This document shows, in pieces, positions 2,850-19,353 of a stretch of 40,471 bases of DNA. The DNA comes from a virus (taxonomy: Duplodnaviria; Heunggongvirae; Uroviricota; Caudoviricetes): positions 1 to 40,471 of IMG/VR virus record IMGVR_UViG_2547132281_000014; one strand, 5' to 3'. Position numbers and translations under genes: made by a program. The notes under the pieces are model-generated. The model was not told where the DNA came from. It made no database searches and saw only the letters and a list, made by a program, of their open reading frames with translations. The first letter of the stretch is position 1. The number at the start of each line of letters is the position of its first letter.

Positions 2850-3154
2850 TATTTCACCTCTTGCTGTGACATTGTTGAAAAATGGATACCAGCTCGTTGC
2901 TGCCAGACGATCCAACCGAGAGTCATATCCCATGCCATGTATTCGTTATCGCCGTTTTTTGCTCTCCGACGATCTACTAAGTCACCGAAACGCTTTTCCA
3001 TGAATAATTCATAAGCTTCGCGTTCATCTGGTTCTACTTCCAGAGATAGGAGTGCGATTTCATAAGCACGGCGCTCAATATCGTCTCGCACGTCAAGGCT
3101 GCTGATACGCTCTTTAATTTCTTTAATCAGTTCTTTGTCGGTAAAAGTGGTCAT
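2849..3154 (-). CDS. yfdT: Hypothetical early-left protein, YfdT-like (101 aa)
   Basis: ORF abuts its neighbours (stop/start overlaps). Its size and its position after a DUF551 gene match my recollection of the CPS-53 yfdP-yfdT order. Function unknown. Confidence 0.55.
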   Translation of the reverse strand: MTTFTDKELIKEIKERISSLDVRDDIERRAYEIALLSLEVEPDEREAYELFMEKRFGDLVDRRRAKNGDNEYMAWDMTLGWIVWQQRAGIHFSTMSQQEVK

Positions 3155-3516
3155 TATGCTCCAGCCTCCGGTGCTTTTGGCATTACTGCCCAGTGAGTGA
3201 TATTGACGTTTTCAAGGTCCCCGACCTGAAATGTCCACTGCCATTCTCCGGTTTCTTTTTGTCCCCAGGTGTACCAGAGAGAACGCCAGCCAATTAGCCA
3301 GCCTTCTCCGTTAGCATCGAATAACAAAACACTTTCATTTGCTGGTGGCAGTTCAGTTGACACTGGTATTACTTTGTTTTCCTGTGCTGCACATTTAGCT
3401 TCAAGCGCATCGAATTTACGCACCAGGTATTCAGCATCTGTTTCATTTACTTTCAGATCTCGCGGTACACATCTCCCACGAAGAAACCCTTCCATTTCGA
3501 AAACATTCATGCGCAT
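3154..3516 (-). CDS. yfdS: DUF551-type phage protein, YfdS-like (120 aa)
   Basis: C-terminal WLIGWRSLWYTWGQKETGEWQW...ITHWAVMPKAP is the Trp-rich DUF551 signature. The ORF overlaps both flanking genes. Confidence 0.7.
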   Translation of the reverse strand: MRMNVFEMEGFLRGRCVPRDLKVNETDAEYLVRKFDALEAKCAAQENKVIPVSTELPPANESVLLFDANGEGWLIGWRSLWYTWGQKETGEWQWTFQVGDLENVNITHWAVMPKAPEAGA

Positions 3517-4043
3517 TTGCGTAACTCCGATAACTCGTTAAAGCGTTCCATAAACATCCCGTAGGCATGGCCCGGTGCCAGTGGAATCACGTTGAACATC
3601 TCTGTTGCCGGGATATCTTCCAGTACAGGCCAGAAAGAGCCATCATCAAGCCCGAGATCGCGGCGTTCGGTTGCCAGCATGATGAGATCGGCATATTTCA
3701 CGGGCGTACTCATAACTGGCGGTAACCCGTATTTCTCACGGATTACGGCGTCTATTTTTTCTTCCATTTGTTTATAGTCAGGAAGAAGGCGTTTCAGTGG
3801 TGCGGGAATGTCCTGGCAATACGCTTCTGTTGCATCATGCATTAACGCTTCAAAAGCAAATTCCTGCGGCACCAGCTGGCTGCAAAGAACCGCATGTTGG
3901 GCGACGCTGTAGAAGTGCGAAAGATGACCGGCAAAGCGACAGATATTTGAAAGGGAAACCGCGATATCGTTAATATCGATGTCGTCTTTATTTATCCTGT
4001 CATAATAAAAATGCTTCCCGGAAAAAGTTTTAATAAATGACAT
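3507..4043 (-). CDS. yfdR: HD-domain phosphohydrolase (5'-deoxynucleotidase-like), YfdR-like (178 aa)
   Basis: Start moved to the ATG at 4043, which is preceded by GGAGAA. HD-superfamily pattern RFAGH...HD(ATEAY). The 178-aa length matches my recollection of K-12 YfdR. Confidence 0.78.
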   Translation of the reverse strand: MSFIKTFSGKHFYYDRINKDDIDINDIAVSLSNICRFAGHLSHFYSVAQHAVLCSQLVPQEFAFEALMHDATEAYCQDIPAPLKRLLPDYKQMEEKIDAVIREKYGLPPVMSTPVKYADLIMLATERRDLGLDDGSFWPVLEDIPATEMFNVIPLAPGHAYGMFMERFNELSELRKCA

Positions 4044-4136
4044 TTTGTTCTCCACGTATATGCGCTGCACCGCGCTGAATTCTGGTAAAAAGAATCCCTC
4101 ACCATCCGGCGATTATTGAGTAAATTACGTTTCCAT

Positions 4137-4158
4137 AAATGCCCCCGCAGGGGCATTT
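4137..4158. terminator. Intergenic 9-bp perfect hairpin (AAATGCCCC-cgca-GGGGCATTT) between the yfdQ-like and yfdR-like genes
   Basis: Perfect inverted repeat read directly in the sequence. No strong U-tract on either strand, so it may be an intra-operon attenuator or RNA-stability element rather than a full terminator. Confidence 0.3.
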
Positions 4159-4170
4159 GCAGTAATGAAA

Positions 4171-4995
4171 TCAGGCGGTGAAAGTACCAATAAAGGTTTC
4201 TACTTTGCTGTCCTTGAATTTCTCAACAAGCAGATCACGAAATTCGTTAGCCATTTCTTCCTGCACCGCCTCCAGCTGAATAATGCGCAGAACCAGTACA
4301 GGACGATCGCCAGTGATAATACTGAGGCGTAATTTAAACGGACGTTCTTTCAGACCTTCAAACGGAACGCATTTAAATTCAAATGCCACTGGCATAATGT
4401 CTTTGGTCTTCGCTTCGACAGACTCCATCAGGGAGCGTTTGCCGCTGAAGTCATTATCTTCAAAATCAGCGGTCTGGTTTGCTTCAATCGTGATTTTACG
4501 GACAGCCGCAGCCGCTTTTGTTGCCTGAATAGCGTCACCATTAGCATCAAAGCCCACAAGATAGTCGGCCCAGTCTTCAATCCATTCTGCTAGTGACTTC
4601 TGGGAGTTACGCTCGCCGTTAACAGACAACAGAGCAGAGAACGGTGCTGTCTTTTTCAGTTTGAGTGTGGCGGTGTTATCTGCGTGACCTGGTTCATCAA
4701 TAGTACCCAGGTTAAGCACACTGACGGCACGCATATTATCAGCATCGATAAAGCAGCGGGTGCCTTCATCTGCAAGATCTTTAGAATAACGGGTAAAGTC
4801 ATCGATGCTGGCAGTGGAAAGCGCACCACGGAAACGGAAGCGATTTAAATTAAATTTTTCCAGATCATGAATGCGGAAATTCTCAGGCAATGCCACAGCA
4901 TCGGCACCAATCTTACTGATAATTTCATTAACACCCTGAGCAGAAATAAGGGCATGGATTTGATTAATTGCGGTTGCGTCTAAGTTCTGAGACAT
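4171..4995 (-). CDS. yfdQ: YfdQ-like (DUF2303-type) phage protein, 274 aa
   Basis: Clean 274-aa ORF preceded by an SD sequence (GAGGA). Length and position match my recollection of CPS-53 yfdQ. Function unknown. Confidence 0.7.
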
Positions 4996-5891: not shown

Positions 5892-6326
5892 ATGTCCGGT
5901 AATATCTATACGCTGTACAAATCCCACTGTGAAAATGTTGGAAAGTATCGGGGCATTGAAATCAGTGGGGTAGTGTCATCAGTCGAAATAAGCAAAGTTG
6001 AATCAAGGGCAACATTACTTACTCTTTTGGACCTTGTCTTACATGAGCACCGGAAGAAATTCGGCACTCCCTATAATCAGTTGAATGGGAAAAAGGCTCT
6101 GGTTCACCTTATTCTGATGAAGCATCACTGGATGCCAAAACAGATTAATGAGATGAAATTTGATGAACTTCTTCTTTCAATTCAGGATGAACTCACACTT
6201 GATAAAATAAGCGTAACCGCCCAGAAATTTTTAGATTATCGAGACTGGAGAGCACAAATTCATCACTTTGATGATTTTGACGAAAATGAATGGGATCCTA
6301 ATTTGTCTGCACAATATCTAAAGTAA
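5892..6326 (+). CDS. Hypothetical 144-aa protein, oriented against the early-left operon (moron-like)
   Basis: ATG preceded by AAGGA with 6-nt spacing. AT-rich codon usage unlike the phage core. Mostly helical-looking sequence with an acidic C-terminus (HHFDDFDENEWDP). No family recognised. Confidence 0.55.
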   Translation: MSGNIYTLYKSHCENVGKYRGIEISGVVSSVEISKVESRATLLTLLDLVLHEHRKKFGTPYNQLNGKKALVHLILMKHHWMPKQINEMKFDELLLSIQDELTLDKISVTAQKFLDYRDWRAQIHHFDDFDENEWDPNLSAQYLK

Positions 6327-6504
6327 CATCCTGTGATAAAACCGTGATTTCCTGATCCAGTTTTTTTAAGGAGTCTATTGTTTCCTGTCGATAAGACAGC
6401 ACTTCACGAAGCTGGTTTATAGCTGCCAGCTTCTTTGTCATCCACTCATAAATTTCCTCATCTGTGTAGCCAGGCGCGACGATTTTGGGTTCTGTTTTGT
6501 GCAT
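6298..6504 (-). CDS. Hypothetical 68-aa coiled-coil protein, first ORF downstream of pL
   Basis: ATG at 6504 is preceded by GAGGAG. The track start at 6519 is a TTG and is less likely. The 3' end overlaps the convergent 144-aa gene by 29 bp. Confidence 0.5.
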   Translation of the reverse strand: MHKTEPKIVAPGYTDEEIYEWMTKKLAAINQLREVLSYRQETIDSLKKLDQEITVLSQDVTLDIVQTN

Positions 6505-6563
6505 TTCACATCTCCTCAAGTTATCAGTTACTTGTTGATGGGGACCAGATTGTTAAAGAGCTA

Positions 6564-6586
6564 AGCGTCCTGTAGGGCGCTTTTTT
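6564..6586 (+). terminator. Rho-independent terminator, functional orientation on the + strand
   Basis: AGCGTCC-tgta-GGGCGCT followed by TTTTTT. The stem contains a G-U pair on the + strand that becomes a C-A mismatch on the minus strand. The minus strand also lacks a U-tract. Confidence 0.65.
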
Positions 6587-6668
6587 GTTGCTAACGAATC
6601 ATCCTGGACTTCATATGCCCCAGGCGGCTACTTCGTGGGCGTCCTGCCTGTTCGTTGTCGGCAAAATG

Positions 6669-6710
6669 ATATTGCTACTTAAAGTTGCAAAAATCAACTA
6701 CAAAAAGTAG
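6669..6710 (-). promoter_or_regulatory. Putative pL with two operators (OL)
   Basis: Minus strand: TTGATT (6697-6692), 17-bp spacer, CAATAT (6674-6669). Operators CTACTTAAAGTTG (6675-6687) and CTACAAAAAGTAG (6698-6710) are 23 bp centre to centre. This mirrors the pR/OR layout. Confidence 0.6.
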
Positions 6711-7016
6711 AAGTTAAGGGCATAAAAACGCATTTTGAAATTAATTCATTGAATTTACAGGTAAAATATTTTGGGGGCTATGATCAAAAAATTATATTGT
6801 GAAGTTAGCTGAGTTGTAGAACGTGATGGATTGTTTCATTGTGGCTGAGATCAGTATGTGATCTAGTTAATCATCAAGTGGGGAGAAGTCAATCATGAGA
6901 GTATTGTTGAGTTTTTGGAGGCTAAGTGTAAAACGGTAGGGAATTTACTACTCAATGGATTGTGTGATTTAGCCTCGATAGTAAGAAAACTAGGGCAGGT
7001 CATAGTCAAAAACTTA

Positions 7017-7424
7017 TCAAAACATAAATTTGGCGAGACCTAAAATCGCCAAGCCTGTTGCAACAGTCCATGCGATCTGTTTATTTACGGCTGATGAAAT
7101 AGCGCTGTTGACTTCACTTAGGCTAGGTTTTTTTGACAACTTTTCATCTATATCTATTTGTTTTTGAAGGATAACAGCGACATCGCGTCGGGTGTCGGAG
7201 AGAGCGTTTCGCAAATCACGAATGTCAGCTCTCATCTCTGCGAGATTTGTTTTTATATCCTCAACATTCGCTTCTAACTTAGCGACTCGGGCTTCAAGCA
7301 TGTCATCACCTCCGCCATCTCCACCGTGTCTTCTAATTGTGGGAAGTTCACTATTAAATGGTACTACATTATTTTGCGGCGTCGGCATTTTTTTCATCTT
7401 CCGTTTTTGCTGGGAACTTTTCAT
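7017..7424 (-). CDS. Tail-anchored coiled-coil membrane protein (up to 135 aa; start uncertain), last gene of the cI operon
   Basis: Heptad-like segment LEARVAKLEANVEDIKTNLAEMRADIRDLRNAL. Single hydrophobic helix at the extreme C-terminus (IAWTVATGLAILGLAKFMF). Alternative ATGs lie at 7397, 7388 and 7301; the one at 7301 has the best SD, GGAGGT. Confidence 0.55.
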   Translation of the reverse strand: MKSSQQKRKMKKMPTPQNNVVPFNSELPTIRRHGGDGGGDDMLEARVAKLEANVEDIKTNLAEMRADIRDLRNALSDTRRDVAVILQKQIDIDEKLSKKPSLSEVNSAISSAVNKQIAWTVATGLAILGLAKFMF

Positions 7425-14755: not shown

Positions 14756-14933
14756 AGAAACTGTTTTTTATGACTGAACCTGTGGTGCAACTTAAAAAGT
14801 TACTGTAGCCATTGACGCCATTGTTGCTTGTTTTTTGAGCAGTGGATGGAATGCTTGCTGGCTTAGGCGCAGCTGTAGTTGTATGCCTGTTAGTATAGAC
14901 TACAAAGTTACCTGTAGATGATTTGTTATCCAT
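14754..14933 (-). CDS. Unlisted 59-aa ORF translationally coupled to the protease gene (Thr/Ser/Asn-rich)
   Basis: The ATG at 14933 overlaps the protease stop (cATGGATAA). Translation: MDNKSSTGNFVVYTNRHTTTAAPKPASIPSTAQKTSNNGVNGYSNFLSCTTGSVIKNSF. The stop abuts the 14726-14755 hairpin. The sequence is low-complexity, so coding status is uncertain. Confidence 0.3.
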   Translation of the reverse strand: MDNKSSTGNFVVYTNRHTTTAAPKPASIPSTAQKTSNNGVNGYSNFLSCTTGSVIKNSF

Positions 14934-15921
14934 GTCGAGCCCACCCCTCTGAGATAAGGTTATGATTTATGCCGAACTGACCTGGGACGCCTGGAACTTG
15001 CAAACGCTGTAACATCCCCTCAGTGCGGAATTGATATGAAAACGTGTCTGGAGCCTCTAAAATGCTTCTGACAGATACGTACGATGCCTGGTTAACTGTT
15101 CCTAAGATAGCATTTGGGTCAAAAGGTTCACCCAGATGCATCTCAGTTTTGAAATCTTCATAAATTTCTTTGATCAGACTGTAAAGGTGCTCATCTGGTT
15201 TTTCCACCGTAAGACCTAAATCGTTTACCGCTTCAATCCTATTTATAGTGTAGTCATGGCTACCAGAATCACTACAAAGGAAACTTACAATTTTCTCAAT
15301 GCTTTCACTATCAGTGAGTTGGTGAGACAGTAGTTTTCTTGCGAGCATTTGAATCTGCGCTTTAGCTCGATAGACTTTTCCAAGTACCAAGGGATGAACC
15401 TTTTCACTTAATGCAAGGAGGATCTGTGCAAGTGAGGCATCATCTTTGATATTCAAATCATGCTTAACTACTTCAAGATAGCCATTGATTTCTTCAACAC
15501 TGACTGGAAGTTGAAGTGGCTGCCCATTGATTATGGCCGAAGGGTTAAGTGGTGTATTCACACTTGGATCGATTGGCCCTAAGGTTGCCTGCTTGGTCAT
15601 AACCAAGTTGTTCGCGCCAAGGCACATTATCGTCCCAGAACTATGGCATTTTGATGGGATTATGATTTCGAGTTCTTTACAAAACTGACGAAGCAGGTTT
15701 ACAAGGCTCCATGCTGTTAAAGTGTCGCCGCCTCGCGTATAGAGCACGAGGCTAATTTTTTGAACATCACCTATCACATCAAGATGATTGACGAACAGAT
15801 CGAATACATCAGCGCTGATTTGAGCTTCTTGGTTTGGTCTATCACCTGTTACATAGCATAATACTTTTGAATTGCGTGCTTGTTCCAGTTGCGCATACAG
15901 GGCTTTACGCTGCTCAAACAT
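14926..15921 (-). CDS. SDH-family / Clp-fold (S49-like) serine protease, 331 aa, reverse-strand moron between Q and the lysis genes
   Basis: N-terminal half VLCYVTGDRP...ISLVLYTRGGDTLTAWSLVNLL...PSKCHSSGTIMCLGANNLVM fits the ClpP/SppA-like fold, with a candidate nucleophile Ser in HSSGT. SD AGGA. AT-rich relative to its flanks. Confidence 0.7.
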   Translation of the reverse strand: MFEQRKALYAQLEQARNSKVLCYVTGDRPNQEAQISADVFDLFVNHLDVIGDVQKISLVLYTRGGDTLTAWSLVNLLRQFCKELEIIIPSKCHSSGTIMCLGANNLVMTKQATLGPIDPSVNTPLNPSAIINGQPLQLPVSVEEINGYLEVVKHDLNIKDDASLAQILLALSEKVHPLVLGKVYRAKAQIQMLARKLLSHQLTDSESIEKIVSFLCSDSGSHDYTINRIEAVNDLGLTVEKPDEHLYSLIKEIYEDFKTEMHLGEPFDPNAILGTVNQASYVSVRSILEAPDTFSYQFRTEGMLQRLQVPGVPGQFGINHNLISEGWARHG

Positions 15922-17182: not shown

Positions 17183-17558
17183 GCTGACTATCTCTGCTTT
17201 CTTCTTTACTGTTATTGGCTCTTTCATCTGGTCAGCGAATCACTACTACAGCAAATATCAGCACGAAAAGAAACGTGCTGATGAGGCTGTACAAAATGCC
17301 AAATCGGCAACTGCCATTACCAATAACGTCCTGCAATCACTGCAAATCGTCAATACAGTACTGGAGGCTAACCAGCATGCAAAACAGCAGATCGCACTGG
17401 AGTCACAGAGAACCCAGGAAGATATCAAAATGGCTGTTGCGGATGATGATTGTGCTTCACGTGCTGTGCCTGCTGCCGCTGCTGACCGGTTGCGGAAGTA
17501 CGCGGACAGTTTACGTGAGCGTTCCGGTGGCACCACTGCCACCCAGCCTGACTTCTGA
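17166..17558 (+). CDS. Rz: i-spanin Rz
   Basis: N-terminal TM segment (ISAFFFTVIGSFIW) followed by a coiled-coil periplasmic domain. Overlaps the endolysin 3' end. Confidence 0.85.
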   Translation: MKLSYKLTISAFFFTVIGSFIWSANHYYSKYQHEKKRADEAVQNAKSATAITNNVLQSLQIVNTVLEANQHAKQQIALESQRTQEDIKMAVADDDCASRAVPAAAADRLRKYADSLRERSGGTTATQPDF

Positions 17559-17700
17559 TACTCCTGTACCGTTTATACCTAATCCGCTGACGTATGGTGC
17601 CAGTCTGGAGCTGAATGTGAGTCTGTTGTCTGCGCTGGCTAACTGCAATCGGGATAAAGCTGATATTCGTAAAATAGATGCAGAGAGAACTAACCATTAA
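17443..17700 (+). CDS. Rz1: o-spanin Rz1 (lipoprotein), overlapped rather than embedded architecture
   Basis: In the +1 frame inside Rz: MMIVLHVLCLLPLLTGCGS, with lipobox LLTGC, then a Pro-rich mature part. It extends 142 nt beyond the Rz stop. Confidence 0.8.
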   Translation: MMIVLHVLCLLPLLTGCGSTRTVYVSVPVAPLPPSLTSDTPVPFIPNPLTYGASLELNVSLLSALANCNRDKADIRKIDAERTNH

Positions 17701-17721
17701 GCAATAAAATTGTCAAATTAA

Positions 17722-18348
17722 TCAGTTGTCAAATGAATATACGTTAAAGGTATATGTCGACATAATTTCACCAAGTACCTCAATACATACACTTTTTTTA
17801 TGAAAATTACTGGGAAATGAACTTAGCTCCTCAAGACATTGCACATAAGTGCTGATATCACTTGCATCACGTTCAAGGAATTTCACTTGACCAAAAGAAG
17901 GAGTTTTAATCTTGGTTCTTTGCTGGATTATATGGATAAAGTGTGTAGTTGGTGAAACTATTACTCTTGAAATATCGGAAATGATGTCTTCTTGAACTTG
18001 CCGATAAAGTAAATCCTTTGGGTAATGGTGTTTAATCTCGATGGTTGCAACATTGCCATTATGTTCAGACGTTAATATCGACTGGTTATAAAGTGATATG
18101 TCAACAGCGCCGATACCGAGTTTTGGATGCTCACTTAAAGCAGTTAGTGTGCTGATTTGATTGAGTATAACAACTAACTCATCACGTATTTGTGTTTCAT
18201 GTTTGCGATTGTAGAAGTAGCCATTCAGTTCATTTAACTTTTTATGCATCCTATCGTGACTAATTGCTTCGATCAGTAAATCCTGAATCATACTTTTCTC
18301 TAGATAATCCGAACGGTTGTAAGTGACAGTATTGTGCTGGCATGTCAT
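17722..18348 (-). CDS. Putative PD-(D/E)xK-fold nuclease (208 aa; start may be ATG 18291)
   Basis: The motif order fits the restriction-endonuclease-like core: helix with E (ETQIRDELVV), then GAVDISLY (D), then ATIEIKHH (ExK). The gene is strongly AT-rich. Confidence 0.5.
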   Translation of the reverse strand: MTCQHNTVTYNRSDYLEKSMIQDLLIEAISHDRMHKKLNELNGYFYNRKHETQIRDELVVILNQISTLTALSEHPKLGIGAVDISLYNQSILTSEHNGNVATIEIKHHYPKDLLYRQVQEDIISDISRVIVSPTTHFIHIIQQRTKIKTPSFGQVKFLERDASDISTYVQCLEELSSFPSNFHKKSVCIEVLGEIMSTYTFNVYSFDN

Positions 18349-18391
18349 TAATATGTAAAGGTATTGTGAATGCCAGAAAGATAACGAAGTA

Positions 18392-18727
18392 TCATCGATA
18401 GAAAAACTTTACAGCCCACTCGTAAACAGCTTTGTAAATCGGTTCATGGTAAATACTATCGATACTATTCAGATGTGCGATCATCGCCTCCACAGTTGTA
18501 GTGGTTGTTTCTAATATTTCGATTATTGCAGGGCGGTCATCATCTTCATCGAAGTATTCGAACAGCAGTACAGGTTTACCATGCAATTCAGCATCTGAGA
18601 CTCTAAGGTTACAACTACCGCTCAACTCAAAGTGAATTTTGTAATTACCTTCTACAGAATGGCCTACGGGGAAAAAGTATAGGGTGTCATCTTTGTTCAA
18701 AAGCCATTCCCATTCATAACTATTCAT
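18392..18727 (-). CDS. Hypothetical 111-aa acidic protein, first gene of the AT-rich two-gene operon
   Basis: The ATG at 18727 is preceded by AGGAG with 7-nt spacing. The track start at 18745 has no SD. Contains an acidic stretch FEYFDEDDDRP. No family recognised. Confidence 0.55.
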   Translation of the reverse strand: MNSYEWEWLLNKDDTLYFFPVGHSVEGNYKIHFELSGSCNLRVSDAELHGKPVLLFEYFDEDDDRPAIIEILETTTTTVEAMIAHLNSIDSIYHEPIYKAVYEWAVKFFYR

Positions 18728-18877
18728 TTGTGAACTCCTGTTCATTGAGTTTCAACAACTATCAACTACATCCAGCGAAGCATAAAAGATCGTTTATGGC
18801 AAAACCGGAATGGAGTGCGATTCGATTCTGAGAAGGGTGCCACGTATCGTACGCGAACCATCCAAGAGGATTATGCA

Positions 18878-19228
18878 ATGCCCCTACGAACCCCAAAAGC
18901 CTGCCGCGTTCGCGGCTGCCGTAATACCACTACAGACCCGTCAGGCTACTGCGAAAGCCACAAAAACGAAGGCTGGAAACAATACAAGCCGGGGCAATCT
19001 CGTCATCAGCGCGGTTATGGTTCGAAGTGGGACAGTATCCGCGCGCGTGTGCTGAAGCGTGACAAAGGTTTATGTCAATTATGTCTGCATGCTGGTGTGG
19101 TGGGTGAGGCGAAAACCGTTGACCACATCATTCCCAAAGCGCATGGCGGCACCGATGCCGACAGTAACCTGCAGAGTCTGTGCTGGCCGTGTCATAAGGC
19201 GAAGACGGCCCGTGAACGGCTGAAGTAA
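18878..19228 (+). CDS. HNH endonuclease (terminase-associated, HK97 gp74-like)
   Basis: The ATG at 18878 is preceded by AAGAGGA. HNH motif CQLC...VDHIIPKAHGGTDADSNLQSLCWPCHKAKT. Lies directly upstream of the terminase genes. Confidence 0.88.
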   Translation: MPLRTPKACRVRGCRNTTTDPSGYCESHKNEGWKQYKPGQSRHQRGYGSKWDSIRARVLKRDKGLCQLCLHAGVVGEAKTVDHIIPKAHGGTDADSNLQSLCWPCHKAKTARERLK

Positions 19229-19353
19229 GAACCAGTTCCCATTGCCAGAGGGGAGGGGCGGGTCAAATCCCTGTGACCTGACGTCTTCCGGACTGCCCGC
19301 CCCATCGTTTTTTTATACCCGCGAAAAATGAAATTTAACCAGGAGTGCCGCAT

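Follow-up and report, generated by a model that had tools for sequence, protein, structure and literature searches.

Introduction

In phage lambda, the slot between the lysis and packaging genes is the location of bor. The slot has also been described as a moron/immunity location in lambdoid phages, where the Tai defence genes sit "upstream of the packaging module" (PMC11364771). This study examined a block of DNA in a comparable position in a Caudoviricetes genome, IMG/VR record IMGVR_UViG_2547132281_000014; the window referred to throughout is the whole stretch analysed, 40,471 nucleotides (nt) in length. The block (17701-18810) carries two minus-strand genes, one encoding an acidic protein of 111 amino acids (aa) and the other, downstream of it, a 189-aa protein with a predicted PD-(D/E)xK (restriction-endonuclease-like) fold. 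The block is most likely composed of two independent morons stacked in a variable slot between the lysis and packaging genes, and the 189-aa gene is very likely a stand-alone PD-(D/E)xK accessory gene.

Results and Discussion

Distribution of the two genes

Both genes occur together in 78-79 of 5426 complete E. coli genomes (~1.5%). These carriers share one cassette with 95-100% nucleotide identity (at least 94% at the aa level), always on the same phage backbone; because the co-occurrence is confined to this single near-identical cassette, it represents one evolutionary event. Among diverged loci (<90% identity) in IMG/VR, tblastn placed the small gene at 0/24 nuclease loci and the nuclease at 0/10 small-gene loci. 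The nuclease was found without the small gene in genome and metagenome loci of Enterobacter, two Yersinia species, Citrobacter, Proteus, Pectobacterium and Klebsiella electrica, and the converse, a small gene with no nuclease, was seen on four or more distinct phage backbones as well as in one Pectobacterium remnant. Separation of the two genes was also seen among E. coli-type contigs: two of these (L056 and L057) carry an intact nuclease with the small gene absent, and in three others (L087-L089) an IS3-family element splits the nuclease gene and the small gene is intact.

The first-pass annotation, made from the letters of the window, had read the two genes as a toxin-immunity, sensor-effector or defence pair consisting of a nuclease and its small partner. 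The counts from the diverged loci contradict that proposal, with homologues of the two proteins co-occurring essentially only within the one E. coli cassette, and the distribution is not that expected of an antitoxin or obligate partner. The 111-aa protein instead appears to be an independent moron rather than an obligate partner of the nuclease, and its gene seems normally to fill the slot between the lysis genes and terS by itself. Adjacency inside one clonal cassette should not be taken for functional pairing.

Three further observations were made on these contigs and genomes. In L056 (2369-2824, minus strand) and L057, the place of the small gene is taken by a gene on the opposite strand for an unrelated 151-aa predicted membrane protein, for which no Pfam or PADLOC match was obtained. 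The IS3-family split falls after approximately codon 57 (L087, about 3117-4312) and is present in several E. coli-type prophages. In two of the E. coli genome matches (H67 and H68), the nuclease gene appears in two places.

Predicted fold, active site and family of the nuclease

The larger gene (17722-18291, minus strand) encodes a protein identical to RefSeq WP_000613842.1, which is annotated as a "hypothetical protein", and corresponds to phrog_12494. An AlphaFold2 model built with 17 homologues in the input (predicted local distance difference test, pLDDT, 84; predicted template modelling score, pTM, 0.85) places a helix at residues 29-46, strands at 50-53, 65-68 and 80-89, a helix at 91-107 and a strand at 117-127. 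This alpha-beta-beta-beta-alpha-beta topology is the canonical core of the PD-(D/E)xK superfamily, to which the model adds a pair of helices at the N-terminus and a beta-hairpin at the C-terminus. Across 31 aligned relatives, the most distant at 19% identity, just five columns never vary: K30, E32, D64, E85 and K87. These residues fall where the catalytic signature of the superfamily has them, with E32 within the first helix of the core (29-46), D64 where the second strand (65-68) begins and E85 and K87 forming the E-x-K of the third strand (80-89). The putative catalytic codons span 18031-18204 on the minus strand (K30, 18202-18204; E32, 18196-18198; D64, 18100-18102; E85, 18037-18039; K87, 18031-18033).

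A PD-(D/E)xK nuclease had already been suspected from the motifs ETQIRDE, GAVDISLY and ATIEIKHH. All three are present and hold the family-invariant E32, D64, E85 and K87, and the nuclease call is supported by the modelled core, by the invariant residues and by one relative (P0084), which passes the gathering score of the Pfam family PDDEXK_4 (24.1 vs 22.3 bits) and matches the profile of the present family with an E-value of 3e-42. The 189-aa protein is thus predicted to belong to the PD-(D/E)xK superfamily with its active-site residues intact (E32...D64...E85-x-K87, plus K30), and an active enzyme is argued for because the catalytic tetrad is invariant across the family. The best fold neighbours are the type IIP enzymes SwaI, BglI, EcoRV, MspI, NgoMIV, BamHI and HincII, and the predicted fold comes nearest to that of the EcoRV-class type IIP restriction enzymes, R.SwaI among them.

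At the level of sequence, an exhaustive HMMER search of 1.84 billion cluster representatives returned only 42 family representatives at E<=1e-3. The nuclease family is very small, uncharacterised and outside existing models, and it appears to be an effectively unmodelled sister group of PDDEXK_4. Scans of both window proteins against Pfam, NCBIfam and PADLOC gave only sub-threshold noise; the PADLOC-DB v2 hidden Markov models matched neither window protein nor any of four distant relatives; sequence-profile searches of the PDB with both window proteins gave nothing significant; Foldseek gave no match below E 0.01 against the PDB and BFVD; and neither window protein was matched in 50,697 phage genomes by megablast and tblastn. 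The earlier view that neither protein can be assigned to a named family or known defence system therefore holds for the Pfam, NCBIfam and PADLOC scans, and the nuclease family is recognised by no current detection tool. A full-text literature search for six RefSeq accessions, whose coverage did not extend to the prophage-defence paper of Brenes & Laub 2025, found none, and the accessions searched are absent from the DefensePredictor supplements.

Several relatives of approximately 310 aa (P0089, P0091, P0092, P0094 and P0098, from Acinetobacter and metagenomes; L019) have a C-terminal DUF6508 domain fused to the nuclease core, and at least one of these fused relatives lies on a Rep3 plasmid contig. 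No mention of DUF6508 was found in the literature searched.

Gene starts and the small acidic gene

The longest open reading frame (ORF) of the larger gene runs from 17722 to 18348 and would encode 208 aa, which is the form described in the first-pass annotation together with a 43-nt gap separating it from the small gene. Both the ORF and that gap exist. The true start is nevertheless almost certainly the second ATG, at 18291, giving a protein of 189 aa and an intergenic gap of 100 nt. This start is preferred because the homologues all begin with MI(Q/R/H/N)xLL at this point (MIQDLL/MIxxLL), because PGAP and PHROG both use 18291 and because the 19 upstream codons (18292-18348, minus strand), which are the source of the 208-aa reading, are not conserved in other genera, where promoter and terS-remnant DNA lies in their place. 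The start given for the larger gene in the first-pass annotation is thereby corrected.

The small gene (18392-18727, minus strand) encodes a protein identical to WP_001089763.1 and corresponds to phrog_14397. Its ORF spans 18392-18745, and the 111-aa form starts at the ATG at 18727, with a Shine-Dalgarno sequence, AGGAG, 7 nt upstream (18735-18739, minus strand). The acidic character and the ribosome-binding site previously noted for this protein were both borne out, with a pI of 4.56 and 20 D+E vs 8 K+R residues. Its AlphaFold2 model is of low confidence (pLDDT 53), and its family comprises about 15 clusters confined to Enterobacterales.

The slot and its genomic context

The prophage is an SfV/e14-like lambdoid of E. 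coli that combines a head of the HK97 type with a Mu-like contractile tail; its integration site is tRNA-Thr, beside proA. Over the 1.3 kb surrounding both genes, it is 100% identical to strain 40EC and to three further complete genomes. To the left of the block, the Rz-like and Rz1/LysC genes end at 17700; to the right, on the plus strand, an HNH gene (18878-19228) is followed by genes for a P27-type TerS and for TerL. Two minus-strand ORFs occupy the gap between Rz/Rz1 and this HNH-terminase module, in an orientation opposite to that of the late genes. The G+C content of 17701-18810 is 36.5%, compared with a mean of 50.9% for the window (standard deviation 5.6%, in segments of 1110 bp), making it the lowest-GC stretch of this size. 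The ORF map and GC profile agree with the earlier description of an AT-rich block of ~1.1 kb on the opposite strand between the spanins and the HNH/terminase genes, and a recount of 17761-17820 gives exactly the 17 G+C previously reported. The block lies between conserved modules, has an atypical composition and an opposite orientation, and is polymorphic for presence and absence, as is characteristic of a phage moron; the same slot in related phages carries other cargo. The proposal that it is horizontally acquired accessory DNA in a slot like that of lambda bor was likewise supported. An Rfam scan of 17300-19300 gave no match, and a repeat scan of the region detected only short, chance-level repeats.

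Beyond E. coli, the nuclease was found in the slot between lysis genes and terS on unrelated backbones with P27, Terminase_2, Sf6/P22 and DUF2280 packaging types, in Enterobacter, Yersinia, Citrobacter, Proteus, Klebsiella and Pectobacterium, and its close homologues are located exclusively in this prophage moron slot. Cargo in the slot varied among the loci examined. The Proteus homologue adjoins an LmuA nuclease (Lamassu), a ClpP-like protease lies downstream of the nuclease at the Klebsiella locus, and at one small-gene locus (L013) an aspartyl-protease-like gene follows the small gene. The more distant relatives have genes of conflict systems around them. One of these relatives, P0106, lies inside a type I restriction-modification operon (hsdM, hsdS ... 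hsdR; L020, 755-11938). Other distant relatives are on small Rep3 plasmids, adjoin WYL-WCX regulators, a GmrSD_N enzyme, an AriA-like AAA_15 ATPase or a serine recombinase, or lie in arrays of RHS fragments and WapI-like immunity genes. The context of the relative P0083 was uninformative.

The insert within the L020 operon holds SMODS and SLATT_4 genes, a gene for a 228-aa protein with a predicted membrane segment, P0106 and AbiEi/AbiEii, forming a compact nested defence island. On another contig (L146, 3986-6358), a gene for an AriA-like AAA_15/AAA_21 ATPase lies 18 nt after that of a relative with 43% identity to the nuclease, and a 139-aa gene also follows. Nucleases of this family may in some cases have an ATPase as a partner.

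The terS junction and the origin of the cassette

Where either gene occurs alone, it lies directly beside the start codon of a divergent Terminase_2/Sf6-type terS (MAKPDWG...). The junction CCCCAGTCCGGTTTTGCCAT is common to both kinds of locus, being located upstream of the nuclease as well as of the small gene. At nuclease loci this junction runs on into a perfect -10 hexamer, CATGTATAATCC, approximately 35 nt before the ATG. Six loci from outside E. coli conserve this perfect TATAAT, which overlaps the start of the divergent terS. The shared junction suggests that modules of cargo are exchanged, and now and then stacked, by recombination at the 5' end of terS; the E. coli cassette would then be a stack of two modules that were once separate.

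In the window, TerS is of the P27 type and is encoded further downstream, with the HNH gene. Upstream of the small gene, a remnant of 11 codons (MAKPEWSAIRF, then a stop; 18796-18831, plus strand) corresponds to the start of a Terminase_2/Sf6-type terS, as determined by alignment to small-gene loci that lie beside a real terS. This remnant appears to be a footprint left by recombination where the imported cassette meets the phage on its left side. In one E. coli phage lineage, recombination at the 5' end of terS would have put the small gene upstream of the nuclease. In Enterobacter (L002, about 5940-5995), a 17-codon terS remnant (MTKPDWSVLQHRLTVVV, then a stop) lies upstream of the nuclease gene, and an unrelated 77-aa gene stands between the two.

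The intergenic or leader region of the window (18292-18391, minus strand) contains a possible, poorly aligned degenerate copy of the junction, TGTCACTTACAACCGTT. The stretch upstream of the window nuclease may therefore keep a degenerate junction with TACAAC in place of TATAAT, this being a weak match. The nuclease's own -10 would since have decayed, from TATAAT to TACAAC, and both genes may now be co-transcribed; loss of the -10 suggests that the nuclease is now transcribed from the promoter of the small gene. A consensus scan gave a weak promoter-like TTTACA-17-CACAAT at 18359-18331, and in the promoter and terminator scan of the window region the matches were below shuffle expectation, with no terminator. 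More generally, the lysis-terS junction of lambdoid phages is a cargo-exchange site, and its footprint, the first terS codons, could be used to mine cargo genes.

Proposed function of the nuclease

With moderate confidence, the 189-aa protein can be read as a DNA endonuclease that is expressed in the lysogen, works on its own and restricts phage or other foreign DNA as it enters. The gene would be transcribed leftward from the prophage in the lysogen, and its product would act alone as a Mg2+-dependent DNA endonuclease on superinfecting phage or other incoming DNA. The nuclease would have no dedicated methyltransferase or antitoxin; self-sparing would therefore come from substrate preference or from activation on infection, for which the options include a modified, unmethylated or structurally unusual target, protection by host Dam/Dcm and infection-triggered activation.

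Several points weigh against a solitary restriction nuclease. The evidence from defence context consists of a handful of loci and is not an enrichment statistic; a constitutively expressed nuclease would need some means of sparing its host; and insertion sequences inactivate the nuclease gene in some genomes, so the gene is dispensable. The sigma-70 consensus scan upstream of the small gene found no promoter, and the scan after the nuclease gene found no intrinsic terminator. For the relatives in RHS and immunity arrays, a toxin or immunity role in inter-bacterial conflict is equally possible. If phage block were shown, the protein would add a minimal single-gene PD-(D/E)xK family to the prophage-borne defences, and it would raise the question of how a restriction-like enzyme lacking a methyltransferase spares its host.

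Alternative explanations

The E. coli cassette has some of the appearance of an obligate two-component system (toxin-antitoxin/abortive infection or sensor-effector) in which the small protein neutralises or regulates the nuclease: its genes are neighbours on one strand, their order (small acidic gene, then nuclease) is that of type II toxin-antitoxin modules, they travel jointly in the 78-79 E. coli genomes, and the degenerate -10 of the nuclease may leave it reliant on read-through from the small gene. Enterobacter homologues, moreover, have a different small acidic gene upstream (77 aa, pI 4.46). Such a system is nevertheless very unlikely, and the distribution refutes it unless some alternative partner is always present. 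Co-occurrence is limited to a cassette of at least 94% identity, the small gene is present at none of the 24 diverged nuclease loci, the 10 diverged small-gene loci are all without the nuclease, and loci in genomes of six other genera show the same separation. In Citrobacter and Klebsiella the nuclease directly abuts terS, the upstream stretch in Yersinia is without a conserved small ORF, and the intact nuclease of L056 and L057 stands beside the gene for the unrelated membrane protein. The gap of 100 nt is unlike the overlapping or tight arrangement of typical toxin-antitoxin pairs, and the Enterobacter 77-aa protein is not homologous to the 111-aa protein, having been considered as a divergent homologue and rejected (BLASTP E 0.25). 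It is comparably improbable that the two genes are opposing players that ordinarily circulate apart in the same slot, with the 189-aa protein a methyltransferase-independent lysogen restriction nuclease and the 111-aa protein an inhibitor of the nuclease (DNA mimic/anti-restriction) that rival temperate phages carry, such that the cassette combines a weapon with self-immunity. If this were true, the stack would let the prophage replicate after induction and would represent a new form of self/non-self discrimination for a solitary restriction-type enzyme.

A sequence-specific type II endonuclease, with methylation provided in trans by host Dam/Dcm or a distant prophage methyltransferase, is unlikely. 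In its favour, the best structural neighbours are type IIP enzymes, a length of 189 aa matches small type II enzymes, methyltransferases (Dam-like ones included) are encoded by lambdoid prophages of this type, the Yersinia locus has a D12 methyltransferase and Mom, and the close homologues are all in Dam+ Enterobacterales, with Dam or Dcm present. Against this, the linked cognate methyltransferase of a type II restriction-modification system was not found. None is adjacent to the nuclease at any locus examined or consistently linked to it, and in the flanks fetched for Enterobacter, Klebsiella and the Pectobacterium remnant (4-6 kb to each side) no methyltransferase was called. The DNA methyltransferase located nearby in strain 40EC was considered as a cognate partner and rejected, being absent from the window and from the other E. 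coli carriers; its place near the lysis genes is taken in the window by a gene for a ClpP-like serine protease and in other carriers by TIR and caspase genes or by nothing. For distant relatives on small plasmids and in islands, too, no adjacent methyltransferase was called, the neighbouring hsdM of L020 belonging to the type I system. A function in inter-bacterial conflict, as an orphan toxin or immunity-type protein, or a catalytically inert fold, in either case with no anti-phage role, is improbable. Distant relatives on gut-metagenome contigs have as neighbours an RHS-repeat fragment, a WapI-like immunity protein and DUF6892/DUF7738 proteins, and no PADLOC model is matched, but the invariant catalytic tetrad, the lack of a secretion or delivery domain (189 aa, no Pfam match) and the restriction of close homologues to the prophage moron slot all point away from such a role. 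PD-(D/E)xK homing endonucleases exist, and the nuclease could similarly be a free-standing, homing-endonuclease-like selfish element aimed at the 5' end of terS and spread by gene conversion among co-infecting lambdoid phages. It is repeatedly immediately beside the terS start at the shared junction, and truncated terS 5' remnants flank the modules in the window and in Enterobacter, as co-conversion or recombination would leave. This has the smallest probability of the readings considered: the non-nuclease small gene uses an identical junction, which points to a hotspot of recombination and not to targeting by the nuclease, the boundary on the right varies, the E. coli cassette is beside an HNH/P27-type module without the terS target, distant relatives reside in chromosomal islands and plasmids, and the orientation and placement are those of a lysogen-expressed moron.

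Other variable regions of the prophage

Cargo in the slot between Q and holin differs among the E. coli carriers. In the window this slot holds a gene (14926-15921, minus strand) for a 331-aa protein with a ClpP-like, SDH-type serine protease domain (PF01972) and no PADLOC match. Elsewhere it holds an NYN-domain gene and a DNA methyltransferase (L001), TIR-domain and caspase-family genes (L035), a 248-aa hypothetical gene (L034) or only a 59-aa hypothetical gene (L033). A second AT-rich block of the window, at ~6050-6900 (about 37-39% GC), is near an ECs1072-family gene (5892-6326) and upstream of a 135-aa minus-strand ORF (7017-7424), whose PADLOC matches are only weak and coiled-coil-like.

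Comparison with known systems

The likeness of the E. coli cassette to type II toxin-antitoxin and abortive-infection pairs extends to gene order and sizes and is superficial; here the pair is not conserved, either gene is found alone and the gap is 100 nt. Effectors such as Cap4/LmuA, NucC and GmrSD also differ from the 189-aa protein, which matches no PADLOC model and is without a sensor, ATPase or cyclic-nucleotide-binding domain. With R.SwaI and the EcoRV-class type IIP enzymes (PDB 5TGQ, 1EO3 and 1DMU) it shares a similar predicted fold, but the identity is only 13%, there is no sequence-level match, and an adjacent or consistently linked methyltransferase is missing. The uncharacterised family PDDEXK_4 (PF14281) is tied to the nuclease family by transitive homology through P0084, whereas the window protein and nine other relatives give no match to PF14281 at E up to 0.1-1. 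Lambda bor, other lysogen morons and the Tai genes of phi80-like phages share with the block their slot, leftward orientation, AT-rich composition and presence/absence polymorphism; there is no homology, however, between the 189-aa protein, a predicted nuclease, and either Bor, a lipoprotein, or Tai, which blocks tail assembly. The family itself is unmodelled, rare and unstudied, but the kind of object is already familiar: a PD-(D/E)xK nuclease moron in a known prophage hotspot.

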